From assembly GCA_028703535.1 (NCBI GenBank), contig JAQVMQ010000003.1, forward strand, positions 1-48,816: a stretch of DNA of 48,816 bases, written 5' to 3'. The notes below the pieces were generated by a model. It was given only the letters and a program-made list of their open reading frames with translations. It did not search any database and was not told where the DNA came from. Origin of the DNA: Candidatus Omnitrophota bacterium (GTDB lineage Bacteria > Omnitrophota > Gorgyraeia > Duberdicusellales > 4484-171). Both the position numbers and the translations under genes were made by a program. This document shows positions 18,690 to 35,076 of the stretch, piece by piece (position 1 is the stretch's first letter; each line of letters begins with the position of its first letter).

Positions 18690-19034
18690 CTATAATTTTT
18701 GTCGGGCTTTTGCTCTTATATATTCTTCAAGATAGAGTATTTTATCTTTTGGAGCATCAACGAATTTAAGGCCGACATCATATCTATTTATGCCGGTAGG
18801 ATCTTTTTTTATCCATTGTACTTGTGACAGTATTGTAATAGCAAACGTCATTTTTTTTATTTTTAGATTTAATTTCAATAGAGAATTTTTAGGAATAAAT
18901 TCATGAGTGTAGATTCTGGCTCCGCCTAAGCTTATATCCCGTGTCATAAAAGAAAATTGTTTAGGATATGTTACTATTTGATAAACAATTTCTGAATCGT
19001 CCGGTATGCGTATATAACGTCGTCTTTCGTTCAT
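18690..19034 (-). CDS. PilZ domain protein
   Basis: RRRYIR (RxxxR) and DISLGG (DxSxxG) c-di-GMP-binding motifs. Located 5 nt downstream of pilM. Confidence 0.7.
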   Translation of the reverse strand: MNERRRYIRIPDDSEIVYQIVTYPKQFSFMTRDISLGGARIYTHEFIPKNSLLKLNLKIKKMTFAITILSQVQWIKKDPTGINRYDVGLKFVDAPKDKILYLEEYIRAKARQKL

Positions 19035-19039
19035 AGTAT

Positions 19040-19999
19040 TTAAGCTAACGCTATCCCATATGGAAGTACCATCTCCTGCGCATAATCAATCAATATAGGG
19101 GTTTTCTTTAGATCCACAAATGGATTCCAAAGTTGGCAGTTGATGTTCAGCTTATCCTGTAATATTTTAGGCAATTGTGCGAGTTTCGAAGACCCGCCAC
19201 ACAGATATAGCATTTCTATATCGCCTAATACATTGGTTTTTCGGCAATAGGCTATTGACATTTCCACTTCATTAATTAATGAATTGAGATCTATGGAAAT
19301 AATGTTTTCTAAATCAGAGTCAGGATTCATCTTTAGTTTGCTGGCATCAGGTAAATGCAAACCTTTAAATTCTGCGATAGCTCGTGTGAAATTATCACCT
19401 CCGACATTAACATCACGGGAAAAGATAATCTGTCCGCGTTTTACAATTAAAACGGTAGAAATTATATGTCCGACCCGAAAAATGATATAAGATTTGTCTT
19501 TGCTGGGTATAGTTTTCTTATAAAAAAGATTATATAAAGCAGAGGAGTCGATAACGATTTTTTCAAGCTCTATGTCAGTTTCTTTAAGTAACGCGATTTG
19601 ACTGTTAATGAAATTTTTTGAGCATGAGACAATCACTACATTCATTTGTCCGTCAGGCCGTTTACCTAAAATATTTACGTCAATTATGGCATCTTCAAGA
19701 GGGAAAGGGACATATTTTTCAATATCATATTTAAGTGAATTGAGAAGCTTATCTTTATTCATATATGCAAAAACATCATATCTGACAATAACATCCTTGC
19801 CTGAAACTGAAATTTTTGCCGTTTTACTTTTTATACCGGAATTAACAATCAGTTCTTTTATTCGTGCAGGGATGTTCGGTTCATTCTCATTTAAAGGCAT
19901 ATACCCGCAAGCTATTATCTTTTTTGAATGAGAATTACTAACCTCAACAGCTTTTACAGAATAAGTCCCAATATCTAATCCAATGACTGCCTTACTCAT
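19040..19999 (-). CDS. pilM: Type IV pilus assembly protein PilM (actin-like ATPase fold)
   Basis: VIGLDIGTYSVKAVEV N-terminus, LCGGSSKL; 319 aa. Confidence 0.8.
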   Translation of the reverse strand: MSKAVIGLDIGTYSVKAVEVSNSHSKKIIACGYMPLNENEPNIPARIKELIVNSGIKSKTAKISVSGKDVIVRYDVFAYMNKDKLLNSLKYDIEKYVPFPLEDAIIDVNILGKRPDGQMNVVIVSCSKNFINSQIALLKETDIELEKIVIDSSALYNLFYKKTIPSKDKSYIIFRVGHIISTVLIVKRGQIIFSRDVNVGGDNFTRAIAEFKGLHLPDASKLKMNPDSDLENIISIDLNSLINEVEMSIAYCRKTNVLGDIEMLYLCGGSSKLAQLPKILQDKLNINCQLWNPFVDLKKTPILIDYAQEMVLPYGIALA

Positions 20000-20397
20000 T
20001 TATTTAATTCCTTTATTCTTAAATATTCACGATAATATTTTGAAGCGTCGAGATTGTTGCCTAAATACTTACCATTGATCAAGAATAAATTATATAACGC
20101 TTTTTCCTGTATATTTTTATCAGGGCCTATTAAAACAGAATTAAATTCTTTAAGGGCGATGCTGTATAGACCGTTCAGTGAATAAAGAACACCCATGTTA
20201 TAGTGTATTTTTTGACAGCTTTCTTCTGTCATGCAAGATCTGGAAAGCTTGTTATATTCAAACAAGGCCATAGAATAATCATTGTTTTTATAATATTCGT
20301 AAGCCGTTTTTTCGGACGATGACGAGTTAGCAATGTTTTCGGCTAAAATAGATAATGGGAATACTGCAAAAAGAAAAATATAAAATAATTTATTCAT
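19996..20397 (-). CDS. TPR-like secreted protein (possible secretin accessory/pilotin)
   Basis: Signal peptide and TPR-like helices (AYEYYKNNDYSMALFEY..., ALKEFNSVL). Its ends overlap both pilQ and pilM. Confidence 0.4.
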   Translation of the reverse strand: MNKLFYIFLFAVFPLSILAENIANSSSSEKTAYEYYKNNDYSMALFEYNKLSRSCMTEESCQKIHYNMGVLYSLNGLYSIALKEFNSVLIGPDKNIQEKALYNLFLINGKYLGNNLDASKYYREYLRIKELNK

Positions 20398-22177
20398 TAG
20401 GCTCTTCTATTTTTTTTAAATCCATATCGGTATAATTGATTTTTCCCTTTTCAATCATATTAAGTAAATCTTCCCATTTCTCAGATACACTGTTAGGCGT
20501 GTTATTTTTGTTTTCAGCAGAAGATGGTACTTGATTTGAAAGAGTGGGAGTATCCTGAGATATTCCTACAGTATTTTCCAAAGCATCTTTCTTATTTACT
20601 TCTTCATTTTTTTGAGTATAGTCTTTCACTTTATAACTCAAATCGCGTTCAAGCGGGAAATTAAGTAAATTATTTGATAGATTTTGAACTTTATCAGAAT
20701 ACACATCATCTTTTTTTAGTTTTTTGTTTTTTTTCTCGACATCTACTTGTTCATCAGTCGTGTGTAAAATAGTTGGTGTTACAAAGATTAAAACTTCACG
20801 CATTACATCTTCGTCAATTGTTTTATGAAAAAACCTGCCTATCAATGGTAAATGTCCCAAGATAGGGAAGTAGGATTCGGTTTTAGTGACATCTCTTCTG
20901 CGCATACCTCCTATGACTATCGTGCGTCCGTCACCAACGATCATTTTTGTCTTTGTTATGCGTGAATTGGTTATAGGCTGCTCGTCTGACGCTGTATAAC
21001 CGGCAACAAAGCTCTGTTCAGTTTCAAGCTCCAAGATTACTTTATGATTAGGGGTTATATGCGGATTGACTTTTATAGCTATCCCGACACTTTTAAATTG
21101 TGTAGAGGTTGTACCGTCAGAAGATCCGCTGGCATCGGTTTGTACGTAAGTATACGGCACATCTTCAGTAATGTTTATTTCAGCGCTTTCGTTATTAAGT
21201 GTAATAACTTTGGGGCTTGCTATAATATTTGCTTTTTCTTCTGTTTCCAGCATTTGAACGGCGGCTTCAAGCCAGGCATGACTGAAAATAGTATTACCGT
21301 ATGTCAACCCTATAGTTCCGGTAGAGGATAAACTTTGTGTTGCAATTGTGGTCAGATCGGACAGGCTCTCGGGAGCATCTGTAGCAAAAACATCCGAAGC
21401 TTTTTTATCGGCAAAAGACCATTCAATGCCGAAATTGAAGTCATCGGTTATTTTCTTGTCGACCATTAAAACTTCAATTAATACTTGTGTAGTTTGCTCA
21501 TCCAATTCTGTTACTATTTTGGTCATTTTTTCAATATTTTCGGGGACATCCATAATTATAAGACTGTTCGTTCTTACGTCACCTTCGATTGAACCACGAT
21601 CGGATTGTATGGATTTTAAATAAGTTTTTGCTTCTTCTGTCGATACGAAGTTAAGTTTTATTATTTTTATATCTAAAGGACTTTTTTCCATTTCCTGTTG
21701 TATTTTCTCGTACGTTACGATAAGTATATAGTTGTCTTTTTCTATTTTTGCCAAACCATATGTCTTTAATATAAGATCCAGCGCGCTTTCCCATGATAAT
21801 CCTTCAATATGCAGTGTCACGTTTGCAGTAACTCCGTCAGCGACTAAAATACTTCTGTCACCTAGATCAGCAAAAGTTCGGGCAACATCTTTTATATCTG
21901 CATCTCTAAAATCAATATAAACTTTTGAATCCAACGAATCAACTTCAATATTGGAGCCTTCGTCTGTATTCATGGTGTCTTTTATTGGTGAAACGTTTTC
22001 ATCGGGTATAACTTCTGTTGATTCAGATATTCCGATATCCATGTTTTGCGGCATATTTATTGATGGCTCATCAAAAAAATTATCCGTTTCAAAATTGGAA
22101 ATATTTTCTTGTGCGAATGATATATTGATAGTACATGAGAAAAATGTAATAAATATAAAAATAAAAAATTTATTCAT
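20390..22177 (-). CDS. pilQ: Type IV pilus secretin PilQ
   Basis: N0/STN-like YIDFRDADIKDVARTFADL, and a C-terminal secretin domain ending in FPILGHLPLIGRFF...VLIFVTPTIL. Confidence 0.85.
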   Translation of the reverse strand: MNKFFIFIFITFFSCTINISFAQENISNFETDNFFDEPSINMPQNMDIGISESTEVIPDENVSPIKDTMNTDEGSNIEVDSLDSKVYIDFRDADIKDVARTFADLGDRSILVADGVTANVTLHIEGLSWESALDLILKTYGLAKIEKDNYILIVTYEKIQQEMEKSPLDIKIIKLNFVSTEEAKTYLKSIQSDRGSIEGDVRTNSLIIMDVPENIEKMTKIVTELDEQTTQVLIEVLMVDKKITDDFNFGIEWSFADKKASDVFATDAPESLSDLTTIATQSLSSTGTIGLTYGNTIFSHAWLEAAVQMLETEEKANIIASPKVITLNNESAEINITEDVPYTYVQTDASGSSDGTTSTQFKSVGIAIKVNPHITPNHKVILELETEQSFVAGYTASDEQPITNSRITKTKMIVGDGRTIVIGGMRRRDVTKTESYFPILGHLPLIGRFFHKTIDEDVMREVLIFVTPTILHTTDEQVDVEKKNKKLKKDDVYSDKVQNLSNNLLNFPLERDLSYKVKDYTQKNEEVNKKDALENTVGISQDTPTLSNQVPSSAENKNNTPNSVSEKWEDLLNMIEKGKINYTDMDLKKIEEPNE

Positions 22178-22180
22178 AGA

Positions 22181-22558
22181 TTATTCAGCCTTTCTATAAG
22201 GAACTGTAACCACCAACTCCTTATATTTTACTATTATGCCATCTTTTGTTATCTTTTGTATCAATAATTTTTTATCCCAAACTTCGTTTTCACCCAATAT
22301 TTTCGTATTTAATATAACAAACTTTTTATTACCATCAATAATAATCCCATTAATTACTAATTTAGTTACCAAATCTTCAAGTATCGCTTTATCTGTTGTA
22401 ATAAGGTCAAAATCCTCAAAACCTTCCGGAGCAACGAAGGGATCTCTCAGAGATAGTTGGTTAAAGGGGAGATCATTGCCTTGTGCATAAAGCGACGTAG
22501 ATATTCCTGTAATAAACAATAGTAACAAGATTATGTATTTATAATTATTATTTCGCAT
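22181..22558 (-). CDS. PilP-like pilus assembly protein
   Basis: Signal peptide, an LRDPF motif typical of PilP, a small beta-rich C-terminus, and a position immediately upstream of pilQ. Confidence 0.5.
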   Translation of the reverse strand: MRNNNYKYIILLLLFITGISTSLYAQGNDLPFNQLSLRDPFVAPEGFEDFDLITTDKAILEDLVTKLVINGIIIDGNKKFVILNTKILGENEVWDKKLLIQKITKDGIIVKYKELVVTVPYRKAE

Positions 22559-23150
22559 TTTGATATATAATCACAGTTATTTTTTCTTTATAATTATTAG
22601 ATTTTTCTTTCTTTTGAGTATCAATATCAATTTTTGAAACTTCAAACATCTTCGTATTATGCTCAATTGTCCATAAAAAACTTAAAAAATCTGAGAAAGT
22701 TGACAATAATTCTATTTCAACAGGTATTTCATTTAATTTAATTATTATTCCATCACGTTCAATGATTTTTTCTTTTTTATCAAGAGGCTTTATATATGTA
22801 AAGTCTATATTAGATTGTTTAGCAAGGTTAGTTAGCATATCCAAAACACCGTCAACACCAACAGAGTTGGCAATAAGATTTTCTTTGATCTTTAAAAGCT
22901 CGGATTGAATACGTTCAGTCTCGACTTCATGGTCTTTTTTTTCATTAGCAAGCTTATTAAAAGCATTGTCATCATATTGAGCAAAAGAGGTTATGCTTTT
23001 TTTTGTTGATTCTATTTCTTTGATTTTCGGAGAAAGCAGAAGAACCCAGGATATAGCGGCCATTATGAAAATAATGAAGAAAATAAAAGCTACTAACTGA
23101 GATCCGGAGAAGTCCATGCCCTTTTTTTCACTTAAAAGATCGACTGCCAT
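22548..23150 (-). CDS. PilO-like pilus assembly protein
   Basis: Single N-terminal transmembrane helix plus coiled coil; 200 aa; located between the PilN-like and PilP-like genes. Confidence 0.45.
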   Translation of the reverse strand: MAVDLLSEKKGMDFSGSQLVAFIFFIIFIMAAISWVLLLSPKIKEIESTKKSITSFAQYDDNAFNKLANEKKDHEVETERIQSELLKIKENLIANSVGVDGVLDMLTNLAKQSNIDFTYIKPLDKKEKIIERDGIIIKLNEIPVEIELLSTFSDFLSFLWTIEHNTKMFEVSKIDIDTQKKEKSNNYKEKITVIIYQNAK

Positions 23151-23723
23151 CTAATTCTCCATAATAAAGCGTATATTAAACTCGACTGCATCTTTCTTTC
23201 CATATGAAGTTACCCGTAAATTTTGCAGTTGATAATCCAAAATACTGTTATAAAAACGTTCATCGCTACGAAGGTCTTTAAAGAAATCGCTTATTACTGC
23301 TATCGGTCTTTGTGTTATCATAAACGGTGAGAGAAATCCATGTATCTTAATCTCTTTATTATTTAAGTTAACATCTTTAAACCACATAGCCACCGGGGTA
23401 TGTTTTGACAATGCATAGATTTTTTCTGCCCAATTTTTGCGTTTATTTACAAATTCATTATATATTCCGGTTTCAAGTGATAATTGGCTGTTATTTTTCT
23501 TTATTGTCGCAACTTCTGTCTCTATTGCAACATATTTTGCATAAGTTTGTTTAAGGTCATTTATCTTGTTTTTTTGTGAATTAGCGGTAAAGACAAGCGA
23601 GAAATAGCAAATAGCAATTAAAATCGCAGCAAAAACAACTGTAGAACTAATGAAATATACCGATTTTTTCTGTGAATCAGTAAGAGTATTTGACGATTCT
23701 ATAGGTCTAAGATTTATCTCCAA
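23151..23723 (-). CDS. PilN-like pilus assembly protein (start revised to TTG 23723)
   Basis: With the TTG start the N-terminus reads MEINLRP, matching the conserved PilN INLLP motif. AAGGGGG lies 6 nt upstream of the TTG. Single transmembrane helix and 190 aa. The ORF track starts at 23807. Confidence 0.55.
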   Translation of the reverse strand: MEINLRPIESSNTLTDSQKKSVYFISSTVVFAAILIAICYFSLVFTANSQKNKINDLKQTYAKYVAIETEVATIKKNNSQLSLETGIYNEFVNKRKNWAEKIYALSKHTPVAMWFKDVNLNNKEIKIHGFLSPFMITQRPIAVISDFFKDLRSDERFYNSILDYQLQNLRVTSYGKKDAVEFNIRFIMEN

Positions 23724-23828
23724 CTTGTACCCCCTTAAATACTTATATATATTATAACAAAATAAAATAAATGCACAACAAAATAGAAAACACTTTACCA
23801 TAATCATAAAATAGGTTATGATTTTTTT

Positions 23829-24827
23829 ATGGAAATCAGTAGATTAGACCTTAGGAAAAGTATAAAAAAGACATTGCCGATATTTGCATTTGTTATAGTT
23901 TGTGTTTTTCTATTCCTCCTGCTGATATATCAACATAAAATACTACAGGCAAAAATAGAAGACGCTTATATTGCGCAGGAGGCTAAAATATTTGAGATTA
24001 TACTTTTCAACAAAGCTAATATAATGTTCTATTTTTTTTCCATACTTTTAATCTTTTTTACATTTTTACTTTCATGGCAGGTCTATTCAAAAATGAGTAA
24101 AGATAAGTTGAATTTGGCAAACATGAAAACCGATTTTGCTATTATAGCGTCACACGAACTACGAACTCCTGTAACTTCCATATGCCTTATATCTGAACGG
24201 CTGCTTAAGGAGTCTTTGCCGGAGGTGAAGCGAACAGTATATCTTCATCAGATAAAGTATCTTGCTGAAAAGCTCAGTATGATAACTTCTAACATCTTAG
24301 ATATTGCAAAAATAGAAAAAGGCATATTACCTGTAGATGAAAAATCAATCGTGAATTTGAATAATCTTATTTCGACTGTTTCGGAACAATACAATATATT
24401 ACTCCAAACAAAACGCCAGAGAATAGAGCTGCAACTTGATAAAGAACTTCCGGTTATTTTTGCCGGTAAAAACGATATAATCAGAATTTTATCTAACCTT
24501 ATTGATAATGCGGTAAAAGCATCCAATTATGATGCGGCAATAAGAATACGAACAGAGCGGCTAGAATCAAAAGCTGTACTGGTTATACATAATGAGGGTA
24601 ATATTATTTCGGCGGTAGATCAGCCGAAGATTTTTATACCTTTCTACTATAATAACAAGAACGGCACAGGGTTGGGATTGCCGTTAGTTAAGATATTAAC
24701 ACAGCAAAATGATGGAGAAATAACTTTTACAAGCGATAAAGTTAGCGGTACGACTTTTAAACTGATCTTTCCTGAAACACAAGAGAACAATAATGAACAA
24801 ACAAAAAATACGAATATTGTTAGTTGA
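23829..24827 (+). CDS. Sensor histidine kinase (two TM helices, very short extracytoplasmic loop)
   Basis: HisKA H-box SHELRTPV, N-box LIDNAVKAS, G-box GTGLGLPLV. Confidence 0.85.
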   Translation: MEISRLDLRKSIKKTLPIFAFVIVCVFLFLLLIYQHKILQAKIEDAYIAQEAKIFEIILFNKANIMFYFFSILLIFFTFLLSWQVYSKMSKDKLNLANMKTDFAIIASHELRTPVTSICLISERLLKESLPEVKRTVYLHQIKYLAEKLSMITSNILDIAKIEKGILPVDEKSIVNLNNLISTVSEQYNILLQTKRQRIELQLDKELPVIFAGKNDIIRILSNLIDNAVKASNYDAAIRIRTERLESKAVLVIHNEGNIISAVDQPKIFIPFYYNNKNGTGLGLPLVKILTQQNDGEITFTSDKVSGTTFKLIFPETQENNNEQTKNTNIVS

Positions 24828-25467
24828 GGATGATCCGAATATATCCGGTATTATGGTTGATGAGTTATCCGAGAAATATGAGATATTCAATGTTTATACA
24901 GGAAATGACGGCATAGCCGCAGCCGCGGAAAACAAACCGGAGATGATACTTCTAGACATTATGCTTCCAGATATAACGGGATTTGAAGTATGTAAACAAA
25001 TACGCTTGATAGATTACAATTGCGGTATAATTTTTCTGACTGCCAAAACCGATGTAGTTGATAAAATACACGGGTTAGAAATAGGGGGGGATGATTATAT
25101 AGTAAAGCCTTTTGATTTTGATGAATTAAACGCACGAATACAGGCCGTATTGCGCAGAAAACAGAAGGCTCTTGAGTTACCGCAAATATATGAAAAAAAT
25201 GAACTTTTTTTTGATTTCAGGAAAAATACAGTTCGGAAAAAAAAGAAAAAAACAACCTTATCATTTCTGGAATCAGACATAATGAAATTTCTCATAGCTC
25301 ATGAGAATTCCCCGGTAAAACGCCAAGAGATACTGGAAAATGTATGGGGTTATTCTAATTTCCAGGATACACGGACAGTTGATATGCATATTTCATCGTT
25401 ACGTAAAAAGATAGGAAAGGAACATATTCTTACAGTCCACCAAAAAGGCTACATGTTTGTCCCGTAA
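24793..25467 (+). CDS. OmpR-family response regulator
   Basis: Receiver domain (LLVEDDPNI, LLDIMLPD, KPF) plus a winged-helix C-terminus (RTVDMHISSLRKK). It overlaps the kinase gene by 35 nt. Confidence 0.85.
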   Translation: MNKQKIRILLVEDDPNISGIMVDELSEKYEIFNVYTGNDGIAAAAENKPEMILLDIMLPDITGFEVCKQIRLIDYNCGIIFLTAKTDVVDKIHGLEIGGDDYIVKPFDFDELNARIQAVLRRKQKALELPQIYEKNELFFDFRKNTVRKKKKKTTLSFLESDIMKFLIAHENSPVKRQEILENVWGYSNFQDTRTVDMHISSLRKKIGKEHILTVHQKGYMFVP

Positions 25468-25482
25468 TATATACTCATAACC

Positions 25483-25510
25483 TTGAATTTGACCAAAATA
25501 CAGTTATAAT
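25483..25510 (+). promoter_or_regulatory. Promoter candidate immediately upstream of the GGDEF-STAND gene
   Basis: TTGAAT (25483-25488), 16-nt spacer, TATAAT (25505-25510). The ATG at 25517 is only 6 nt after the -10 element, and no SD is visible. Confidence 0.35.
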
Positions 25511-25516
25511 TATGTC

Positions 25517-28500
25517 ATGGATTTCAAAATAACCGAAGCTCAGAAAGGTTTGTATCTTGACCATTTAACGCAAGTGTACAATCGTGTATTTTTATTTGAA
25601 AAAATAAAACCACAGATCAACGAGAAACATCCGTTTACTTTATTCATGATAGATTTTGATAATTTTAAGAATATAAATGATTCTTTTGGACATTTAGCAG
25701 GTGATAAAACTTTAGTACTTGTGTCTCAAGGGATAAAAAACATTATTCCGAAAGATGCCGTACTTATACGTTATGCAGGGGATGAGTTTATCGTTGTTTT
25801 GGAAACTCCCGATATTGACAGGGTAAAATCTATAGCTGAAGATATACTTAATTCAATCCGTGTTCTTGATATCGATTTCAATAATACAAAGATCAATCAA
25901 ACACTTAGTATCGGTATATCTTTCTATCCCGGCGAATCAAACGATCTGAATCAGCTTATCGGTAATGCCGATGCGGCTTTGTATCTATCTAAAAAACGCG
26001 GAAAAAACAACTATGCTTTTTATAACGAGATAAGTATTGAGCAGATGAGTTTAAAGATCGGTTTGAATTATTTTCCTTGCAGCAAGATTATTAATCATGA
26101 GAATATAATCGAAGAACTAAAAGATATGTCCGAAACAAACGTGTTCGGGGGAATGCTGCTTACCGGATCTTCTGGGATAGGCAAAAGCCGTATAATTAAC
26201 GCTGTTAAAGAACATGTAAAGAAAGAGACTCTTTTCGATATCAATCCTTTGCAGAAAGATTGTCTTATGCCTTTTTCATCTCTTCGCAACGGCATATCTG
26301 CATATATAAAAAAACTACTGGCTCTTGAAGATGTTGATATATCATTACTTTCTGATTTATCCAATGAAAATAAAAAAATCCTTGATTTCTTTATTAATCC
26401 CGAAAATAATTTCAACTTACTCTTGAATAATTGCACAACGGATCTTATTAATTCAGCTTTATTATCCTTTTTTGATTGTATCGTAAATAAATACTCAAAA
26501 TTATCAATTATTATTGATAATTTCCAATTTATCGATTTAAAATCACTTAATTTTCTCAAGATGTTAATGGAGAGCTCATATTCACGAAATGTCAAATTTT
26601 ATGCAACAGTACTGTCGCCACTGCCTGAAAACATAAATAATCCTGAAGCATTAACAAAAACAATTACGGAGATATCGAATATACCTAAAATAATCTCTCA
26701 TGAAATACATCCTCTTACAAAAGAGAATACTCGTGAAATGATTGATTTTATTTTTCCGGGGTTAGGAGATAATCTTAATTTTTCTGCGGATATCTTCGAA
26801 ATATCTAATGGACAGCCTTTTTTTATTGAAGAACTTTTGAAACTTCTTTTGGTTAAAAATTTCATATTCCACGAAGATGGAGGGTGGAACATACGTGATA
26901 ACTACCAGGATAAAATACCAAAGACATTAACTGAAGTCATACGCCAAAGACTGATAACGCTTGATCCAGAGATAAAAGAAACTATTTTAATATCTTCTTT
27001 ACTGGGTGAGACCATAAGTCCTGAACTTATAAGCCGGATAAACTCTTCTAATGAAAATGACGTATTAGAGATCTTGTCAAAAGCGAATAAGCAGAAAATA
27101 TTGAGAGAAGACAATAATACCTTCAGCTTTTTTAATCCCGCAGCTAAGGATACTGCGCTTAACGAACTTTCGGCTGATAAGAAAGATGAGCTTTTTTCGC
27201 TTGCGTCCGATGCTCTTTTAGATAGTTATACTGATAATCTAGAGGAGATAAGTTTTCAGCTGGCAAACATATTTAAAAATAATAATGATCTCACTCGTTT
27301 GAACTCACTTTCACAGATAATATCAAAAAACGCATCCAATATACTTAACTCTGAAGAAATACTCGCTTACCTTGAAGATATATCTTTCAAGAGAAAAAAA
27401 GCTGCCCATACGATAAAGATAAAGGAACTTTCGTTAGAAGATAGAGATCTTATTTTGGGTTTCTTGAGACACTTCCAAGCAGCTGTAAATTATTCGGGGC
27501 TTTATCCTTCTAACAATAAACTGCGTATACAAATAGTGGAGGATATCTTTAAATTACTTGAACTGCTTTTAAGCAAATATTCATCTATTGAAATATCTGA
27601 AGTAGATAAAAATCTTGTGGTTAATCAAATACGCTTAACTGATTATTATACAAAAGGTCTTGATTTAAGTAGCATAACCACTAGCTTTATTGAACGCAAC
27701 ATAAAAACCGTTACATTTTATAACGGCATAAATCTTGAGGAACTCAGAAATTTTATTTCGGTTATATGTTTAAATCCTGATGAGATATCCAAAATTGGAG
27801 AATGGCAGGCAATAATATCAAAAAATAAATTAACTAATATTTCTATTAATCAGGCAGTATATATATCCGAAGAAAAAAGCAGATTTGCGCCGATAAAAAA
27901 TAAAATCGAAGGCGCGATAATCTCAGACTTTCTGCTTGGAAAACTTTCAGGAAAAGACAAATCAATCGTGCCGAATCTAGATAAAGACACTTTGGAGATA
28001 TTAAAAACAGTGGGTAATAAAAACACTCTGGAAATGCTTAAAAATATAAGCAATATTCCCGATTTATCTTCTTTAGCAGAAGCACCTGTAGAGCCAGATA
28101 AGAGCAATAAACAGGAAAAACCCAGTATAAATACTTTAATAAAAAAACTTGAAGATAAACATACGCATCTTATGTCTTTGGAAGAAGTAAATGATTATAT
28201 TGATAATATCAATGATATACAAACCTCTATCAGCTCACTTGATGATGCAGCTTTATTCCTTGATTTTTTAATAAAATCAAGGAATAAAATTGAAGAAGTG
28301 ATATCGCCTGAAAAGAAAGGAACAAAGAATAAGGATGTTCACAAACAAAATTCAATGGAAATAACATCCATTATAGATATTTTTGTTTCCGAAACACCTA
28401 AGAATAAGATAGAATTTTTAAAAAAATTATCACCTTCGGAAAAAACCACGGTAAAAATTGTTAATACTTTAAAAAACGAAGATATTGAAAATATAGTTAG

Positions 28501-29578
28501 TCAATTAACATCGACTGACGAATCATTATTATCAAAGAAAAAGCTCAGAGATGTTATATTGACATCTACCGACAAACAGTTGCTGGAAAAAATTAAAAAG
28601 CGTACAGGAGAAATACTCGAAAAGACTTATGCAAATGATAAAAATTCAAATATATCAAAAACAATCAGTATATTTGACGATACATCCGAATGGGACAAGA
28701 TGCCTCTTGTAACTAAAATCGATGATTTAAGTATGTTTTCAAGGGAAGACTTTGAGGTAATACCGGCTGATACTATTAATAAGCTGTTATCCGATATATT
28801 GAAATTATCCAAAAGTGATGATTTTAATATGTTAAAAAAAATAACATCTATTTTATCGGAGAAACAAAGTATCGTCTCCGATAAACTAAAAAACGAGATC
28901 AACCGAGCCTATATGAATTTTTTTATAAATATAGAAAAAAACGGATCGAGCTATCATGAGATAGTACCGGTTTTTTGTGCTATAGTGTCGCTATTGGAAG
29001 ATAAGGATATGGCGTTCTTTCAAATAACGTTTTTGTCGAGCTTGCTTAAAAACATGCTTTCGATTTTTAAAATTGATAATTTTGATAAAAATATATACGA
29101 AAAGATCCTTATCATTAACTACATATTTGAATACATCTCACTTCCTAAAAAGAATCTCACAGCCGGAGAATTACAAAAAATAAAAAAAGATTTCGCCTTG
29201 GCTAATTATGCGGAAAAACTCTTTAATCTATACATTACAAAACCCCGAATAACGGAATTCATCAATACAGAATTACCTAAGACATATTTGTTTTTTTCTG
29301 ACAGTCCGTTAGTTATTGCTAAAGTGCTTAATGAGAAGATCTCTTCGATAACGGATCCTTTTGAAAATTTTTCTTTCATACAAAAAATATCAAGGTTCAT
29401 TCTTTCTTTAAACAAAGAAGCGTTGTCTGTTATATTTAAAAAGTTATTAACTGAAAAAAATAAAAAGAAAGTTTACGATATGTTTTTACTGCTTCCTGCG
29501 GACATACAGGAATATATAGTTAATGATATTAAAAACGATAAGGAATATATTTCAATAATTAACGATTTTATAAAATAA
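25517..29578 (+). CDS. Giant multidomain protein: N-terminal GGDEF (AGDEF variant) diguanylate-cyclase domain, AAA_16/STAND-like P-loop NTPase, and about 900 aa of helical region of unknown function
   Basis: GGDEF-domain pattern HLTQVYNR...DFDNFKNINDSFGHLAGD...RYAGDEF (AGDEF at 25775-25789). Walker A GSSGIGKS (26165-26188). Walker-B-like SIIIDNFQFID. Confidence 0.75.
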   Translation: MDFKITEAQKGLYLDHLTQVYNRVFLFEKIKPQINEKHPFTLFMIDFDNFKNINDSFGHLAGDKTLVLVSQGIKNIIPKDAVLIRYAGDEFIVVLETPDIDRVKSIAEDILNSIRVLDIDFNNTKINQTLSIGISFYPGESNDLNQLIGNADAALYLSKKRGKNNYAFYNEISIEQMSLKIGLNYFPCSKIINHENIIEELKDMSETNVFGGMLLTGSSGIGKSRIINAVKEHVKKETLFDINPLQKDCLMPFSSLRNGISAYIKKLLALEDVDISLLSDLSNENKKILDFFINPENNFNLLLNNCTTDLINSALLSFFDCIVNKYSKLSIIIDNFQFIDLKSLNFLKMLMESSYSRNVKFYATVLSPLPENINNPEALTKTITEISNIPKIISHEIHPLTKENTREMIDFIFPGLGDNLNFSADIFEISNGQPFFIEELLKLLLVKNFIFHEDGGWNIRDNYQDKIPKTLTEVIRQRLITLDPEIKETILISSLLGETISPELISRINSSNENDVLEILSKANKQKILREDNNTFSFFNPAAKDTALNELSADKKDELFSLASDALLDSYTDNLEEISFQLANIFKNNNDLTRLNSLSQIISKNASNILNSEEILAYLEDISFKRKKAAHTIKIKELSLEDRDLILGFLRHFQAAVNYSGLYPSNNKLRIQIVEDIFKLLELLLSKYSSIEISEVDKNLVVNQIRLTDYYTKGLDLSSITTSFIERNIKTVTFYNGINLEELRNFISVICLNPDEISKIGEWQAIISKNKLTNISINQAVYISEEKSRFAPIKNKIEGAIISDFLLGKLSGKDKSIVPNLDKDTLEILKTVGNKNTLEMLKNISNIPDLSSLAEAPVEPDKSNKQEKPSINTLIKKLEDKHTHLMSLEEVNDYIDNINDIQTSISSLDDAALFLDFLIKSRNKIEEVISPEKKGTKNKDVHKQNSMEITSIIDIFVSETPKNKIEFLKKLSPSEKTTVKIVNTLKNEDIENIVSQLTSTDESLLSKKKLRDVILTSTDKQLLEKIKKRTGEILEKTYANDKNSNISKTISIFDDTSEWDKMPLVTKIDDLSMFSREDFEVIPADTINKLLSDILKLSKSDDFNMLKKITSILSEKQSIVSDKLKNEINRAYMNFFINIEKNGSSYHEIVPVFCAIVSLLEDKDMAFFQITFLSSLLKNMLSIFKIDNFDKNIYEKILIINYIFEYISLPKKNLTAGELQKIKKDFALANYAEKLFNLYITKPRITEFINTELPKTYLFFSDSPLVIAKVLNEKISSITDPFENFSFIQKISRFILSLNKEALSVIFKKLLTEKNKKKVYDMFLLLPADIQEYIVNDIKNDKEYISIINDFIK

Positions 29579-29579
29579 T

Positions 29580-30026
29580 ATGCTATCTGAAAGAAAAAAA
29601 ACAGCACCGCTGGGTAAAATATTACTTCAGCTTAAAAAGATCACTTTCGCCCAATTAGGTCAAGCCCTAATTGTTCAAAAAGAGAAAATGCCGGATAAAC
29701 GAATAGGCGAGATATTGGTTTATCTGTCTTTCATATCAGAAGATGAGTTGGCATATGCGTTAGCGTTACAATATCAATATCCATCGCTTGATCTTAAAAA
29801 CTATTCGATAAATCAAGAAGCTTTGGCATTAATATCAAAAGAAACGGCTGAAAAAAACCTTATACTGCCGCTTGATATTTTTGATGACATATTAACTGTA
29901 ACAGTTCTAAATCCATTGCATAGAGATGTTTTTGATGAAATATCAAAAAACACCGGAAAAGAATTGCGTTTGTTTGTTTCCTCAAGACAGGATATTCTTT
30001 CTGTAATAAATACTTTATATAAATAA
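29580..30026 (+). CDS. Stand-alone T2SSE_N / MshEN-type domain protein
   Basis: Two tandem 24-residue MshEN-like motifs: PLGKILLQLKKITFAQLGQALIVQ and RIGEILVYLSFISEDELAYALALQ. These are followed by the LILPLDIFDDILTVTVLNP GspE N-terminal pattern. 148 aa. Confidence 0.65.
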   Translation: MLSERKKTAPLGKILLQLKKITFAQLGQALIVQKEKMPDKRIGEILVYLSFISEDELAYALALQYQYPSLDLKNYSINQEALALISKETAEKNLILPLDIFDDILTVTVLNPLHRDVFDEISKNTGKELRLFVSSRQDILSVINTLYK

Positions 30027-31252
30027 TGGAAAATACACATAATAAAATCCCGGAGAATGTATCAAATTCTATAGATAAACTTTTGTCTGCTGACTCATTT
30101 GCCCCTGGTTTTGTTAAAAAATTCCTAATGAAATCGGTTGAGCTTAAAGCAAGCGATATCTTTGTTGAGCCGTTGGATAACCAATTGCGTATACGTTTTA
30201 GAATAGACGGTATCTTGCATACTATTGACACTTGTCCGCCAAAAAACGCTCAGTCTGTAGCTAGTTGCATAAAGGTTATTTCTGATTTAGACATTGCCGA
30301 ACACAGATTGCCGCAAGACGGCCGTTTTAGAATATTTATTGATAATAAACCCATAGATTTCCGTGTTTCTGTATTGCCCACAAACATCGGTGAAAAGATA
30401 GTGTTGAGGGTTCTTGATAAAGGCAATATGCGTCTTGACCTTGATACTTTAAATTTTGATAAAGAATGTATTGAGACCTTAAAGCGTAATCTTGCCAAAC
30501 CTTATGGTATGATACTTGCCTGCGGCCCTACAGGAGCGGGGAAGACAACAACATTATATTCAGCCTTGAGTCATATAAATAAAATTGATGTTAACATAAT
30601 GACAGCAGAAGATCCTATTGAATACCAACTTCAGGGTATAAATCAGGTAGCTATACATGAAGATATAGGCTTAACATTCGCGTCTGTTTTGCGTGCAGCC
30701 TTAAGACAGGATCCGGATATAATACTTGTAGGTGAAATACGTGATTTAGAGACAGCGGACGTTGCCGTAAAAGCGGCATTAACTGGTCATTTGGTTTTAT
30801 CGACTTTACATACAACTACGGCTACGGGAGCTGTAATCCGTTTTATCAGTATGGGAGTAGAGCCGTTTCTATTGGCATCATCATGTGTCATGACATCGGC
30901 TCAAGCATTGATGCGTACACTTTGTCCTAAATGCAAAAAACCTCTTAAAGATAAAGATGCCCTCATGGAAGTCTTTAAGTCGGAAGAGTTTATTCCGCAA
31001 AAAGAGCCGGAATTCTTTGAACCTGTAGGTTGTGATTATTGCAGTAAAACCGGGTATAAAGGACGGGTAGGCATAATGGAAATCCTTGAGATAACAAAAG
31101 ATATCCGTGAATTACTTGTAGCAAATGCTGATGAGAACAACATACGTAAAGTAGCCAAAGACGCGGGTATGATAACTATACGTGAAAGGGCATTGCAAAA
31201 AGTTGTGTTAGGGCTTTCGACTATGGATGAGGTATACAGGGTTACGGTATAA
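30026..31252 (+). CDS. GspE/PilB-family ATPase core lacking the N-terminal MshEN/N1 domain
   Basis: Walker A GPTGAGKTTT, Asp box AEDPIEY, Walker B DPDIILVGEIRD, His box LSTLHT. Tetracysteine CPKC...CDYC is typical of PilB/GspE rather than PilT. The start overlaps the upstream stop (TAATG). Confidence 0.8.
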   Translation: MENTHNKIPENVSNSIDKLLSADSFAPGFVKKFLMKSVELKASDIFVEPLDNQLRIRFRIDGILHTIDTCPPKNAQSVASCIKVISDLDIAEHRLPQDGRFRIFIDNKPIDFRVSVLPTNIGEKIVLRVLDKGNMRLDLDTLNFDKECIETLKRNLAKPYGMILACGPTGAGKTTTLYSALSHINKIDVNIMTAEDPIEYQLQGINQVAIHEDIGLTFASVLRAALRQDPDIILVGEIRDLETADVAVKAALTGHLVLSTLHTTTATGAVIRFISMGVEPFLLASSCVMTSAQALMRTLCPKCKKPLKDKDALMEVFKSEEFIPQKEPEFFEPVGCDYCSKTGYKGRVGIMEILEITKDIRELLVANADENNIRKVAKDAGMITIRERALQKVVLGLSTMDEVYRVTV

Positions 31253-31254
31253 AT

Positions 31255-32847
31255 ATGGAAAAATTATCGTCGTTACAAAAAAAACATCTACATACACTTT
31301 GCAAGAATAATTATTATCCTCCGATAGATCTGTCTTCATGTATAATCAACGACGATATTTTGGATTATATACCGGAAAAAATTGCAAAAACACATAATGT
31401 AATACCCATATCATGTATGGGGTATGTATTGACTATAGCCATAGTCGACCCGTTAAACATAGCAACCATAGACAGTCTTAAACTAATAACCCTTATGGAG
31501 ATATCACCGGTAATAGCTGATGAGCAGCAGCTAAAAGCGGCTATTGAGCTAAACTATAAACGAAAAAAAGAGGCAGAGCCTGATACATCATTAATTCCTG
31601 AGGAGCCAGGTGATACTCCTCAAGGATTTGATCAGTTTCAACGCGAACAAATAGATGTTGATAACGTTGCTAAGCTATCAAAAGAAACACGCATAATAAA
31701 TGCCGTTAACAAAATATTATCCGACGCTGTGACTATGCGCGCAAGTGATATACATATTGAACCCTTTGAAAATGAAGTGCGAGTACGTTATAGAATAGAC
31801 GGCATATTACATGAGACTAAAGTTGTTGAAAAACAATTTCAGCCTGCGGTGATTGCGCGTATAAAAATAATGTCACGGCTCGATATTACGCAGCGCAGAA
31901 TACCACAGGATGGTCGTTTTTCTTTCAAAACAAAAACTAAAGAACTGGATGTGCGTGTTTCCACCGTACCTGTGGATTTCGGTGAAAAAATAGTAATGCG
32001 GTTGCTGGATAAAGAAAATATCAATCTTTCAATAGAAAGTCTGGGCTTTTCTGAAGCGGCATACAAGGCGTTTACAGACGCTATAAAAAAACCTCTTGGG
32101 ATGATATTATTAACCGGGCCTACAGGTTCTGGCAAAACTACAACGCTTTATACTTTATTGAATACGTTAAACACTGAGAGCCGCCATCTTTTGACAATAG
32201 AAGACCCAGTGGAATACAACCTCTGGGGTGTTTCTCAGGTGCCTGTACGTCATGAAATAGGTTTGGATTTTTCTCAAATACTGCGTTCAACATTGCGTCA
32301 GTCACCCGATGTAATAATGCTTGGTGAAATACGTGATAGCGAAACGATAGACATTGCAATGAAGGCGGCACTTACGGGCCATATAGTTTTTTCCACGCTC
32401 CATACAAACGATGCACCTTCGGCTATATCCCGTTTGATCAATATGGGTGTTGCGCCTTTTCTAATCTCATTTTCGATAAACCTTATAGCTGCACAGCGGT
32501 TGGTAAGACGTATATGTCCGGCATGCCGGGAATCTTATCAACAAGATCTCTCCGGAAACACCGAAATTCCTTTGCAATACCGAAAAAAAGATGCTATTCT
32601 ATACCGAGGCAAGGGTTGTTCTGAATGCTCAAATACAGGTTATAAAGGGCGCATAGCGGTAATAGAAGCTCTTTCTTTTGATAATACTATACGTGATATG
32701 ATAATAAGAAAAAAATCAACCGAAGAAATACGTGATTACGCTTTAAAAAATACTACTATGCTATCGTTACGTGAAGATGCCAGTGAAAAATGTTTTAAAG
32801 GCGAAACTACTCTTGAAGAGGTATTAAGAGTTACAACAAATATATAA
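31255..32847 (+). CDS. pilB: Type IV pilus assembly ATPase PilB (full-length GspE family)
   Basis: N-terminal T2SSE_N-like region, GPTGSGKTTT, DPDVIMLGEIRD-type motifs, CPAC...CSEC tetracysteine; 530 aa. Confidence 0.85.
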   Translation: MEKLSSLQKKHLHTLCKNNYYPPIDLSSCIINDDILDYIPEKIAKTHNVIPISCMGYVLTIAIVDPLNIATIDSLKLITLMEISPVIADEQQLKAAIELNYKRKKEAEPDTSLIPEEPGDTPQGFDQFQREQIDVDNVAKLSKETRIINAVNKILSDAVTMRASDIHIEPFENEVRVRYRIDGILHETKVVEKQFQPAVIARIKIMSRLDITQRRIPQDGRFSFKTKTKELDVRVSTVPVDFGEKIVMRLLDKENINLSIESLGFSEAAYKAFTDAIKKPLGMILLTGPTGSGKTTTLYTLLNTLNTESRHLLTIEDPVEYNLWGVSQVPVRHEIGLDFSQILRSTLRQSPDVIMLGEIRDSETIDIAMKAALTGHIVFSTLHTNDAPSAISRLINMGVAPFLISFSINLIAAQRLVRRICPACRESYQQDLSGNTEIPLQYRKKDAILYRGKGCSECSNTGYKGRIAVIEALSFDNTIRDMIIRKKSTEEIRDYALKNTTMLSLREDASEKCFKGETTLEEVLRVTTNI

Positions 32848-32851
32848 GACT

Positions 32852-34051
32852 ATGGGATTATTCAACTGGACAGGAATAAATGCTGACGGTAAAAAAGATT
32901 CAGGCACGATAGACGGAGAGAATCTTTCTTCAGTTATCACTCAGCTTAAAGCCCGGAAAATACAAATAACGGATATAAAAGAGATAAAAACCCAGAAAAA
33001 AGTAAGACGGGGGAAGGTAAGGTCAAAGGATCTTGAACTGTTCAGCCGTCAACTTGCATCACTAATACAATCACGTATACAAATAGTCAAAAGTCTTGAT
33101 ATATTGGCTAACCAGGTAGATAATCCATATTTTTCGGAAGTAATACTCTCTGTAAAAAAGAATATCGAAAAGGGTAATTCTTTGGCTATGTCATTTGCCG
33201 AATACCCAAAAGTTTTTTCACCGCTTTTTATAAATATGATCAATGTAGGTGAGTTTAGCGGGAACCTTGATAAAATGCTTAATCGACTGGCAACATATAT
33301 TGAAGGATATAACGCATTGATAAAACGTGTAAAGTCAGCAATGATATATCCTATCGTTGTCTTTGGCATTGCTGCGGTGCTTTTAGCTTTGATCTTTATC
33401 TTTGTTATCCCAGGTTTTAAAAGTATTTTTGACAGTTTAGGCAAAGGCTTACCGCTACCGACTCAGATACTAATAAGCACCAGTGATTTTATTCGTGCAT
33501 ATATTATATATATGGCTATCGGAATAACCGGGCTGATCTTTGGCGCACTGAAATTCTTTTCTTCGGAAAAAGGTAAAAGAATATTTGAAATCATAAGGGC
33601 AAGAATCCCTATTTTTGGTGATTTGCACAAAAAAATGGTACTAGCCCGTTTTACAAAAACTTTGGCGATTTTAATAAAAAGCGGCGTAACAATTATTAAC
33701 GCGCTGGAGATATCGGGTAAAACCGCGGGAAGCTATAAACTTGAAGAAGAACTTATGCCTACCATAACTAACGAAGTTTCCAGAGGTAAAAAGCTTGATA
33801 TCGCCCTTCAAAATTCCGGATTTTTCCCTCCTATGGCCACAAACATGATTGGAGTAGGGGAAGAAGGAGGAGACCTTGGTAATATGCTTGACAGGGTTTC
33901 GGATTTATATGATAAAGATGTAGAAAACGCGACATCTGCTTTATTATCTATTATGGAGCCGCTAATCATAGTTGTTCTAGGGACATTGATAGGCGGAATT
34001 GTTATTTGTTTATTCCTGCCTATCATGAAAATGAGTTCCATGGTAGGATAG
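32852..34051 (+). CDS. pilC: Type IV pilus platform protein PilC (GspF family)
   Basis: Two GspF-type repeats, three transmembrane segments; 399 aa; immediately downstream of pilB. Confidence 0.85.
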   Translation: MGLFNWTGINADGKKDSGTIDGENLSSVITQLKARKIQITDIKEIKTQKKVRRGKVRSKDLELFSRQLASLIQSRIQIVKSLDILANQVDNPYFSEVILSVKKNIEKGNSLAMSFAEYPKVFSPLFINMINVGEFSGNLDKMLNRLATYIEGYNALIKRVKSAMIYPIVVFGIAAVLLALIFIFVIPGFKSIFDSLGKGLPLPTQILISTSDFIRAYIIYMAIGITGLIFGALKFFSSEKGKRIFEIIRARIPIFGDLHKKMVLARFTKTLAILIKSGVTIINALEISGKTAGSYKLEEELMPTITNEVSRGKKLDIALQNSGFFPPMATNMIGVGEEGGDLGNMLDRVSDLYDKDVENATSALLSIMEPLIIVVLGTLIGGIVICLFLPIMKMSSMVG

Positions 34052-34137: not shown

Positions 34138-35076
34138 ATGCTAAAAAAAATAAATGTATTAATATTAACAATATCTCTTTTTACCGGGATTACATACGCC
34201 TCGACAATAATTTTAAACAATGGAGATACGTTTGAAGGGAATATTGTAGAAAGAACGAAAGATAAAATTACAATTAACGTCCGTGGGATAGAAAAGGAAT
34301 TTAACGCTTCGGAAATATCAAAGATCAAAGGCCGCAGAGCTGTCGCATCTAAAAAAAACCTTGAGGAAAATATTCCGGAAGCAGCCGAACTACAAAAAAC
34401 CACCAAGCCTATCGCTAAAGAAAAACCGTCTGTTAAGATAAATCCAAACCTTGAATTAACATTCCAAAATGCTTTAAGAAATGCCGCTTCAGGGAATTTC
34501 GATACCGCAAAAATAATCTTCAAAGAATTACAGAAAACTGAACAAGACAATGTCAATGTAATTCAGTCACTTAATATAATTGAGGATCTCGATATAAAGA
34601 TCATTTCGGACGAATACGCAAAAGCCTTGTTTAGTGGCGCGTATCTTTATTATATCGAAGATTACGATAACGCTATTAAATCTCTCCAAAAAGCGCTTCA
34701 GTTAAGGCCTGAAAGCTCTGAGATATATTATAATCTTTCCAGTATATATCAGGCGCTTAATGATTATACCAATGCGATCATTTACTTGAAAAAATTATAC
34801 GAGCTTACACCTGCGGATCCTGATGTTGTATTTGATCTGGGTTGTTGCTATTATTTAAAAGAAGATTTCAAAAATGCGATAATCTATTTGAAAAAAGCTA
34901 CGACCATAATACCTGATGATCCTTATATTTATACGTTATTGGGCATGTCCTACTACATGGTTGATAACCGAAAAGACGCTAAAGACATACTCAAACTTGC
35001 ATGTGCCTTTTACGAAAAGGGAAATAATCTAAAAGAATCTGAAAAAATCAAAAAGTTCATAGCGACTATACTCTAA
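34138..35076 (+). CDS. Secreted tetratricopeptide-repeat protein
   Basis: Signal peptide and repeated TPR units (AIKSLQKALQLRPESSEIYYNLSSIYQALNDYTNAIIYLKK...). Confidence 0.6.
   Translation: MLKKINVLILTISLFTGITYASTIILNNGDTFEGNIVERTKDKITINVRGIEKEFNASEISKIKGRRAVASKKNLEENIPEAAELQKTTKPIAKEKPSVKINPNLELTFQNALRNAASGNFDTAKIIFKELQKTEQDNVNVIQSLNIIEDLDIKIISDEYAKALFSGAYLYYIEDYDNAIKSLQKALQLRPESSEIYYNLSSIYQALNDYTNAIIYLKKLYELTPADPDVVFDLGCCYYLKEDFKNAIIYLKKATTIIPDDPYIYTLLGMSYYMVDNRKDAKDILKLACAFYEKGNNLKESEKIKKFIATIL

Follow-up and report, generated by a model that had tools for sequence, protein, structure and literature searches.

An AGDEF-type GGDEF domain fused to a STAND NTPase module at a type IV pilus-like locus of a Candidatus Omnitrophota bacterium

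A 48,816-nucleotide (nt) stretch of DNA from a Candidatus Omnitrophota bacterium (assembly GCA_028703535.1, contig JAQVMQ010000003.1, positions 1 to 48,816; in the following, the window) contains, at positions 25517-29578 (+), a gene for a large multidomain protein, which is the subject of this analysis. The open reading frame (ORF), taken from the ORF list with its translation, opens with an ATG start codon and encodes 1353 residues (aa), within the 1190-1450 aa range of its full-length homologues. The product consists, in this order, of a GGDEF domain of the AGDEF type, a nucleotide-binding oligomerization domain (NOD) of the STAND (signal transduction ATPases that have numerous domains) class, a mid domain and a HEAT-like arm. 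A previous sequence-only reading had proposed a GGDEF-STAND fusion, followed by about 900 residues of helical sequence devoid of nameable motifs. The fusion is borne out by Pfam profiles and by Foldseek, and the coordinates given there for the ORF and its motifs (AGDEF, PKDA, GSSGIGKS and SIIIDNFQFID) were all reproduced by script; the remaining sequence, instead, resolves into a winged-helix/arm region, an alpha/beta mid domain and a HEAT-like solenoid. The Asn/Lys/Ile-rich composition remarked upon in the same reading was found again, as a bias towards I, K, L, N and S, and is a consequence of the AT-richness of the genome (GC content of 30-38% in the window).

Conservation was evaluated on an alignment of 30 full-length homologues, 18-32% identical to the window protein, and folding on an AlphaFold2 (AF2) model of residues 170-1353, built from 37 sequences (mean predicted local distance difference test, pLDDT, 76.8; predicted template modelling score, pTM, 0.46). 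No NCBIfam model spans the full-length protein, no helix-turn-helix (HTH) family is among its Pfam and NCBIfam matches, and Pfam gave no match to class III cyclases (Guanylate_cyc), the N-terminal domain being a GGDEF. A search of PDB sequences with residues 176-1353 returned nothing at E<=1.

The GGDEF (diguanylate cyclase) domain, residues 13-165 (25553-26011, +), is recognized by both PF00990 (Pfam; E=7.2e-39, 133.6 bits, cutoff 23.8) and TIGR00254 (NCBIfam; E=2.5e-37, 128.1 bits, cutoff 37.4), and the solved cyclases DosC, WspR, PleD and DgcZ align with it end to end. Its signature loop, A87-G88-D89-E90-F91 (25775-25789, +), reads AGDEF rather than the canonical GG(D/E)EF, and is found in the same form, preceded by R85-Y86, in all of the 30 homologues. 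Besides these seven residues (R85, Y86, A87, G88, D89, E90, F91), the alignment shows as invariant D46, D48, F50, K51, N54, D55, G58, H59, G62 and D63, along with S131, G133, D152, Y156 and K159. The metal-binding Asp, the guanine-binding Asn and Asp, the acidic pair and the phosphate-binding Lys (D46, N54, D63, D89, E90 and K159), roles which we presume by analogy with PleD, are all intact. Judged from these residues, the domain is probably an enzyme that makes cyclic diguanylate (c-di-GMP).

Conservation of the loop extends well beyond the alignment. A motif scan was run on 187 family proteins, consisting of the full-length relatives and of the best 150 matches of a HMMER search described below, minus the overlap between the two sets: 137 carry AGDEF and 14 GGDEF, while 36 gave no match, most of these being N-terminally truncated fragments. 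The R-Y-AGDEF motif is located near residues 57-174, mostly 80-115. Among GGDEF domains overall, only about 1.6% are of the AG(D/E)EF type (PMC3974145). Since AGDEF accounts for about 90% of a family which has diverged down to about 20% identity across phyla, and since Gly and Ala codons are one base apart, so that reversion to GGDEF would be easy, its fixation speaks for purifying selection that keeps the site functional, and not for decay.

It might be argued that the AGDEF domain is not catalytic, and binds GTP or takes part in interactions; the protein would then be a nucleotide-sensing STAND regulator, or an assembly factor for the pilus ATPases encoded downstream, and no source of c-di-GMP. 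The loop does depart from GG(D/E)EF, the cyclase activity of the family is a prediction, and certain AGDEF domains, NbdA's among them, are considered degenerate. We hold this explanation to be distinctly unlikely, because the residues involved in metal binding, substrate binding and catalysis are all invariant, because GGDEF domains known to act as c-di-GMP receptors use the RxxD motif, which is missing in the window protein, and because two genes for predicted c-di-GMP receptors are adjacent. Moreover, the AGDEF protein VCA0965 of Vibrio cholerae, described by Hunter et al., makes c-di-GMP both in vivo and in vitro (PMC3974145); the precedent had been correctly cited in the sequence-only reading. 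By this analogy, AGDEF in place of GGDEF would lower the certainty of activity, without excluding it.

At the position of the inhibitory site (I-site), which precedes the start of the signature by nine residues, RxxD is replaced by PKDA (residues 78-81, 25748-25759, +). The lack of an I-site, noticed from the beginning, is thus a feature of the window protein, but not of the family, as 18 of the 30 relatives, among them six of the closest seven, keep RxxD, which is lost only in the window protein and a few others. The possibility of a Hypr-GGDEF, making cyclic GMP-AMP, was also considered and set aside as unlikely, D63, the guanine-specifying residue, being invariant in the 30 homologues. In Hypr enzymes a Ser replaces this Asp.

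The STAND-type P-loop NTPase domain covers residues 186-400 (26072-26716, +). It is identified by Pfam, with AAA_16 and AAA_22 matching at residues 207-358, by the alpha/beta P-loop fold of the AF2 model and by Foldseek. The domain opens with FPCxxFIxxxxE, the family version of the 'FVGRE' start of AAA_16, and FPCxxFI is set apart from the GGDEF domain by only about 20 residues. AAA_16 was detected in each of the 30 aligned homologues (best E=1.9e-20), some of which also feature weaker matches to ATPase_2, NACHT, NB-ARC and nSTAND. In the Walker A motif, GSSGIGKS (residues 217-224, 26165-26188, +), G220, G222 and K223 are invariant, and R225 is invariant or nearly so; in the Walker B region, SIIIDNFQFID (residues 330-340, 26504-26536, +), D334 and D340 are invariant. 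At the second acidic position of Walker B (D334-N335, 26516-26521), the window protein and the clade nearest to it, 10 out of 30 sequences, have Asn, and 18 have Asp. To judge from other P-loop NTPases, a D-N Walker B suggests nucleotide binding with slow hydrolysis, and the clade may represent a slow-hydrolysing subgroup.

NGQPFFIEELL (26807-26839, +) is the GxP motif located in the STAND helical domain; its family form is TxGNPxFIEELL, with G432 invariant and P434 conserved in at least 90% of the sequences. In the AF2 model the P-loop domain, at about residues 195-400, is followed by the helical domain, two winged-helix-like (beta-hairpin) units and a helical arm, which together take up residues 401-630 (26717-27406, +) with pLDDT of about 85-95; the assignment of this region also relies on its match to the MalT NOD and on TIGR03903, the TOMM kinase/cyclase fusion family, the STAND part of which aligns to residues 214-592 with E=1.7e-10, below its cutoff. 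P-loop, GxP helical domain, winged helix, arm and C-terminal repeats, i.e. the complete layout of a NOD, were thus recognized by combining model, Foldseek and alignment. When compared to the PDB by Foldseek, the closest structures are Avs3 (E=4e-9), the archaeal STAND-tetratricopeptide repeat (TPR) protein PH0952 (6mfv, E=2e-8) and the MalT NOD (8bob_C, E=3e-7, TMt 0.62), with plant NLR (NOD-like receptor) resistosomes and ORC/Cdc6 as further matches. The P-loop fold, initially proposed from motifs, is accordingly supported both by profiles and by structural similarity to Avs3, PH0952 and MalT.

Avs3, the top structural match, is an antiphage STAND protein, and STAND proteins combining a variable repeat sensor with an N-terminal effector are typical of defence. 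The window protein might by this token belong to a conflict system, in which an Avs/NLR-like STAND senses phage or other foreign proteins through the repeat arm and the GGDEF domain answers with a nucleotide signal; GGDEF is indeed found, although rarely, as an effector in other conflict systems (PMC7159879). This explanation appears to us scarcely probable. The likeness to Avs3 is limited to generic NOD and repeats (TM 0.14), scanning with the PADLOC defence models gave 0 matches, nucleases, proteases and other toxic effectors are lacking nearby, and the position within a pilus locus, amid housekeeping genes, is conserved across distant genomes.

The alpha/beta mid domain, residues 640-780 (27434-27856, +), is composed of two long helices followed by a beta-beta-alpha-beta-alpha3-beta arrangement. 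Its invariant residues, P664, N703 and E742 in the 30-homologue alignment, fall within the motifs LYPxxS, SEVEKxLxxN and IKxIxFxKGxxxxELxxF. Modelled alone by AF2, the domain reaches a pLDDT of 94.2 and a pTM of 0.88. Foldseek against the PDB gave a best E of 0.27 with TM below 0.35, and GAF, PelD and FliS were rejected as possible folds (probability not above 0.25, TM <0.35); in Pfam no family matches the domain consistently, and a mid-domain profile retrieved only chance-level matches from PDB sequences. A word-index protein search returned 0 matches with the mid-domain alignment and 9 with residues 176-1353, the index being apparently poor for a composition resembling low complexity. Within the family the domain is widespread: an HMM (hidden Markov model) detects one or two copies in 127 out of 141 proteins having both an N-terminal xGDEF and a Walker A, while the 14 lacking it are TPR variants or fragments. 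In genome loci of relatives (L088-L325), one to four tandem copies are observed (e.g. in L117, L161 and L191). Relatives from Gemmatimonadota, of about 1600 aa, lack the mid domain and feature a different C-terminal region (e.g. in L109, L131 and L148).

A poorly conserved linker (residues 782-869, 27860-28123, +; pLDDT about 40-50) leads to an all-helical, HEAT/ARM-like solenoid, residues 870-1353 (28124-29575, +), which AF2 models with pLDDT of about 65-87. Its Foldseek matches are importins, CAND1 and cohesin HEAT proteins, with E around 1e-4. Pfam recognizes HEAT_2 in 22 of the 30 homologues, and finds no HEAT match in the window protein itself. The solenoid is presumed to act as a sensor or partner-binding arm.

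The closest full-length relatives, 18-38% identical, are contributed nearly all by metagenome-assembled genomes (MAGs) of Candidatus Omnitrophota, with some from Planctomycetota. An exhaustive HMMER search of 1.84 billion cluster representatives, in which residues 176-1353 were the query so as to leave out the GGDEF domain, selected 5113 proteins at E<=1e-3; of these, 511 pass a threshold of E<=1e-10 and 53 one of E<=1e-30. In the 187 scanned proteins Walker A, where recognizable, lies about 120-140 residues after the xGDEF motif. This regularity allowed members to be searched for at the DNA level, in one genome per GTDB species, by a pattern encoding Y-A-G-D-E-F, a gap of 375-405 nt and GxxGxGK, in two versions differing in the codon for Tyr (TAT or TAC). 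At least 118 and at least 114 ORFs, respectively, at least 232 in all, feature RYAGDEF and, in frame with it, a Walker A 132-141 residues downstream. Because of this short, near-constant spacing, coupling between the GGDEF domain and Walker A is suggested to be rigid.

The carriers of these ORFs belong to more than 10 phyla and are nearly all MAGs. They include Desulfobacterales, Syntrophaceae and other Thermodesulfobacteriota; Aminicenantes and other Acidobacteriota; Gemmatimonadota; Planctomycetota (Brocadiaceae among them); Omnitrophota (Ca. Gygaella obscura among them); Nitrospiraceae (Nitrospirota); Zixibacteria, TA06, Rokubacteria, Myxococcales and some MAGs of Bacillota. No cultured host is found among the pattern matches listed: those in Hymenobacter nivis and Lewinella, which had seemed to be cultured carriers, are out of frame and due to chance. 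A separate locus search, based on Walker A, retrieved mostly unrelated AAA_16 proteins of Actinomycetota and Chloroflexota, an N-terminal GGDEF being found in four loci only (L008, L009, L010 and L044).

The GGDEF-STAND architecture is, then, that of a large, multi-phylum family, and not a singular fusion. The sequence-only reading had left room for a common and already described family: common it is, with at least 232 ORFs in more than 10 phyla, but a literature search combining GGDEF with STAND, AAA_16, NACHT or P-loop brought up no account of a family with this N-terminal GGDEF-STAND arrangement. Database names of the members are limited to "diguanylate cyclase" or "HEAT repeat domain-containing protein".

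The gene lies in a locus coding for a type IV pilus-like machine. Only 1 nt separates its stop codon from a gene for a stand-alone MshEN protein of 148 aa (29580-30026, +; MshEN E=1.5e-14), which is also matched by the NCBIfam model for the c-di-GMP motif, NF053729 (47.2 bits, cutoff 38). The known MshEN motif, (R/K/L)LGxx(L/V/I)(L/V/I)xxG(L/V/I)(L/V/I)xxxxLxxxLxxQ, occurs in two copies divided by a short spacer (PMC11731258). In the 148-aa protein the tandem 24-residue motifs are PLGKILLQLKKITFAQLGQALIVQ and RIGEILVYLSFISEDELAYALALQ: motif II agrees exactly with the consensus at its key positions, motif I begins with Pro and carries Lys where Gly is expected, and the spacer is of 7 residues, not 5. 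In PilF, too, motif II of the GSPII-C domain, which binds c-di-GMP, begins with Pro. On these motifs, the protein is a candidate c-di-GMP receptor.

Further genes follow on the same strand. A PilB/GspE-type ATPase of 408 aa, lacking the N-terminal domain (30026-31252, +; T2SSE E=1.6e-127), overlaps the MshEN gene by 1 nt; after a gap of 2 nt comes a full-length PilB/GspE-type ATPase of 530 aa (31255-32847, +), the N-domain of which is without c-di-GMP motif; after 4 nt, the PilC/GspF platform protein (32852-34051, +; T2SSF E=4e-58); and, after 86 nt, a TPR protein (34138-35076, +).

Gene order is conserved. The succession of cyclase-STAND, MshEN-only and T2SSE/T2SSF genes is kept in four independently assembled loci (L001-L004), at identities as low as 25-31%. 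Among them is a complete Omnitrophota genome of 1.8 Mb, where an upstream pair of two-component genes and a nearby secretin are present as well. The same cyclase/MshEN/ATPase order recurs in further loci of Omnitrophota and Planctomycetota. In L001, L002 and L003, as in the window, the ATPase is split, with MshEN-only proteins of 148-157 aa and ATPases of about 410-420 aa without N-domain: being conserved across distant Omnitrophota genomes, the split is genuine and not the result of a frameshift. L004 (2623-12577, corresponding to the homologue P0021) contains two cyclases, one HAMP-GAF-GGDEF and the other AGDEF-STAND, and a separate MshEN-only gene comes after each of them; two full-length MshEN-T2SSE ATPases are located between the two cyclases.

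Upstream, on the same strand, a histidine kinase (23829-24827, +) and an OmpR-type response regulator (24793-25467, +), both recognized by Pfam, precede the cyclase gene, with a gap of 49 nt. The association with pilus ATPases, already pointed out from the sequence, is therefore confirmed and conserved, but the gene does not clearly head the operon, as had been thought. A kinase/regulator pair is likewise found upstream of P0004, a 31%-identical homologue, and not upstream of P0002, P0011 and P0021. A sigma-70-like promoter match at 25483-25510 was discounted, since the region is AT-rich and 66 such sites were found against 52 expected.

The presence of the pair directly upstream, in the window and in P0004, would fit a cyclase which is controlled transcriptionally by the kinase and regulator, and is constitutive as a protein, the STAND and HEAT parts providing a permanent platform for oligomerization or docking at the pilus machine. 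The D-N Walker B of the clade, suggestive of little ATP turnover, the I-site missing from the window protein, and the fact that HEAT solenoids are typically protein-protein scaffolds are all in line with such an arrangement. We nevertheless regard it as unlikely: Walker A, the first Asp of Walker B and GxP are invariant across phyla, an indication that nucleotide binding matters, the pair is absent upstream of the three other homologues mentioned, and pilus genes are not adjacent to most family members.

On the opposite strand, a divergent pilus operon (18690-23807, -) encodes, in this order, an unassigned protein of 218 aa, PilO, another unassigned protein of 125 aa, a secretin, a TPR protein, PilM and a PilZ-domain protein. 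The last of these (18690-19034, -; 114 aa, Pfam PilZ E=3.7e-11) carries RRYIR at residues 5-9 and DISLGG at residues 33-38. PilZ receptor motifs are RxxxR and (D/N)xSxxG, and the protein is likely, by its sequence, a second c-di-GMP receptor at the pilus locus. A 346-aa HD-GYP protein, farther away (43935-44975, -; Pfam HD_5/HD), features HD (207), HHE (260) and GYP (268), and is a candidate c-di-GMP phosphodiesterase. The window thus encodes a predicted cyclase, a predicted phosphodiesterase and two predicted receptors. Class III signal peptides of pilins were not found in the window by a regular-expression scan, which places the genes for the filament subunits outside it.

The divergent operons have their start codons only 21 bp apart (23808-23828), which leaves hardly any room for two promoters outside coding sequence. 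Five ORFs gave no Pfam match: 45946-47562 (-), 6899-7309 (+), 13777-14322 (+), 22181-22558 (-) and 23151-23807 (-); the latter two belong to the pilus operon and occupy the places where one would look for PilP-like and PilN-like proteins. Just beyond this operon, a 376-aa protein (17546-18676, +) contains an aspartyl protease domain of the retroviral type (gag-asp_proteas E=7e-16). The wider surroundings of the locus consist of housekeeping genes.

Taken together, these features suggest a STAND-gated cyclase, which feeds c-di-GMP locally to the motor of a type IV pilus-like machine; we think this reading probable, if only just. GGDEF domains must pair in order to join two GTP molecules, as stated in PMC7825114, and since they work only as pairs, induced proximity is a natural mode of activation. 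In the established STAND scheme (PMC6468293), a closed, ADP-bound monomer, held inactive by the sensor arm, turns into an open, ATP-bound multimer upon inducer binding, and the effector is thereby activated. The window protein would follow the design of an NLR/MalT-type STAND protein, with GGDEF as its N-terminal effector. At rest, the HEAT-like solenoid, probably together with the mid domain, would keep the NTPase core closed and monomeric; a ligand or a partner protein would open it, and ATP binding would lead to oligomerization, bringing GGDEF domains together for c-di-GMP synthesis. Once triggered, output would be sustained, there being no RxxD site for product inhibition and a D-N Walker B suggestive of slow ATP hydrolysis. 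The MshEN-only receptor would presumably dock on the N-terminally truncated PilB-like ATPase, and local use of c-di-GMP by this receptor and by the PilZ protein would result in control of filament assembly. We infer the catalysis, the ATP-dependent oligomerization, the trigger and the interaction between MshEN and ATPase.

A number of observations weigh against this reading. The first Gly of the GGDEF signature is replaced by Ala, as in some domains considered degenerate, such as that of NbdA. In the window protein AAA_16 is marginal (32.9 bits; gathering cutoff 32.6), and a defective NTPase would account for the D-N Walker B just as well. The geometry between domains in the AF2 model is unreliable (pTM 0.46), and neither autoinhibition nor pairing of GGDEF domains is visible in it. 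The upstream kinase/regulator pair could be the real regulatory input. Outside Omnitrophota and Planctomycetota most family members are not adjacent to pilus genes: among the 232 in-frame ORFs listed, a neighbouring gene for a pilus ATPase, MshEN or PilC is present within the 8-kb loci in 14 cases and absent in 218. The pilus link is thus clade-specific, and more distant members of the family partly adjoin polysaccharide genes.

A broader proposal may be put forward only tentatively, as one we doubt more than we credit: AGDEF-STAND-mid-HEAT proteins would be phylum-spanning 'cyclasome' hubs, in which sensing by the mid domain and the HEAT arm leads to an ATP-driven oligomer and to a burst of c-di-GMP, the invariant Ala being adapted to a higher-order assembly as opposed to a simple dimer. 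In Omnitrophota, ultra-small and possibly host-dependent, the pilus motor would have such a hub as its dedicated on-switch, with the split MshEN receptor as intermediary.

To our knowledge, diguanylate cyclases have almost always been described as controlled by N-terminal sensors, which adjust a constitutive or induced dimer. A STAND-gated cyclase, if confirmed, would represent a new activation logic for c-di-GMP, in the form of an NLR/MalT-like, ATP-dependent assembly switch, threshold-like and possibly all-or-none, and would extend the 'induced proximity' principle of STAND proteins to the synthesis of cyclic dinucleotides. The family is found almost wholly in uncultured lineages, a probable reason for its having escaped notice. 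It also offers a natural experiment on the fixation of AGDEF and a confidently predicted domain without structural relatives in the PDB, and, in Omnitrophota, a compact predicted circuit made of cyclase, MshEN-only protein, split PilB, PilZ and HD-GYP at a pilus locus. The Omnitrophota pilus may matter for attachment to host or prey.

Building blocks and logic of the system are already known; the domain combination, the fixed AGDEF, the mid domain and the pilus circuit with a split MshEN receptor are those for which no prior description was found. GGDEF and AAA_16/STAND are also found in one chain in Ser/Thr kinase-AAA_16-TPR-GGDEF proteins, such as a 1826-aa protein of Clostridium thermocellum (P0048, P0050, P0055 and P0060 being of this kind among the proteins retrieved here), and the combination of kinase, TPR and GGDEF was noted in 2005 (PMC1262709). 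In these, however, the GGDEF domain is C-terminal, kinase and TPR are present and the mid domain is absent, and they are not close relatives of the window family. VCA0965 shares with the window protein the AGDEF loop and the acidic pair, but carries an N-terminal input of five transmembrane segments and an RxxD motif, and is unrelated to it outside the GGDEF domain (PMC3974145). The tandem 24-residue, c-di-GMP-binding motif of the 148-aa protein is that of V. cholerae MshE and Thermus thermophilus PilF; in contrast to both, the receptor domain in the window is a separate polypeptide, its partner ATPase is devoid of a receptor domain and a cyclase gene lies immediately upstream.

Closer parallels to the overall design are found among STAND proteins. 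MalT, PH0952 (6mfv) and the LAL-type regulators resemble the window protein in the succession of P-loop, GxP helical domain, winged helix, arm and repeat sensor, and inducer- and ATP-dependent multimerization, described for STAND proteins in PMC6468293, would by analogy be expected in both. Their outputs are DNA binding or none, whereas the window protein has an N-terminal enzymatic effector and no HTH.

Proteins of the Rv0386 type are composed of a class III adenylyl cyclase, an AAA_16 NTPase, TPR and a LuxR HTH. These proteins and those matched by TIGR03903 share with the window protein an N-terminal cyclase that requires dimerization, followed by AAA_16/STAND and by an arm of helical repeats; GGDEF and class III cyclases reportedly have the palm fold in common, a similarity ascribed to work by Pei and Grishin of 2001. 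In comparison with the Rv0386 type, the window protein has a GGDEF effector, and hence a cyclic dinucleotide as its predicted product, HEAT-like repeats instead of TPR, an additional mid domain and no HTH. By analogy, it would work like the Rv0386-type and TIGR03903 proteins, without belonging to them, since it has a GGDEF effector in place of a class III cyclase.

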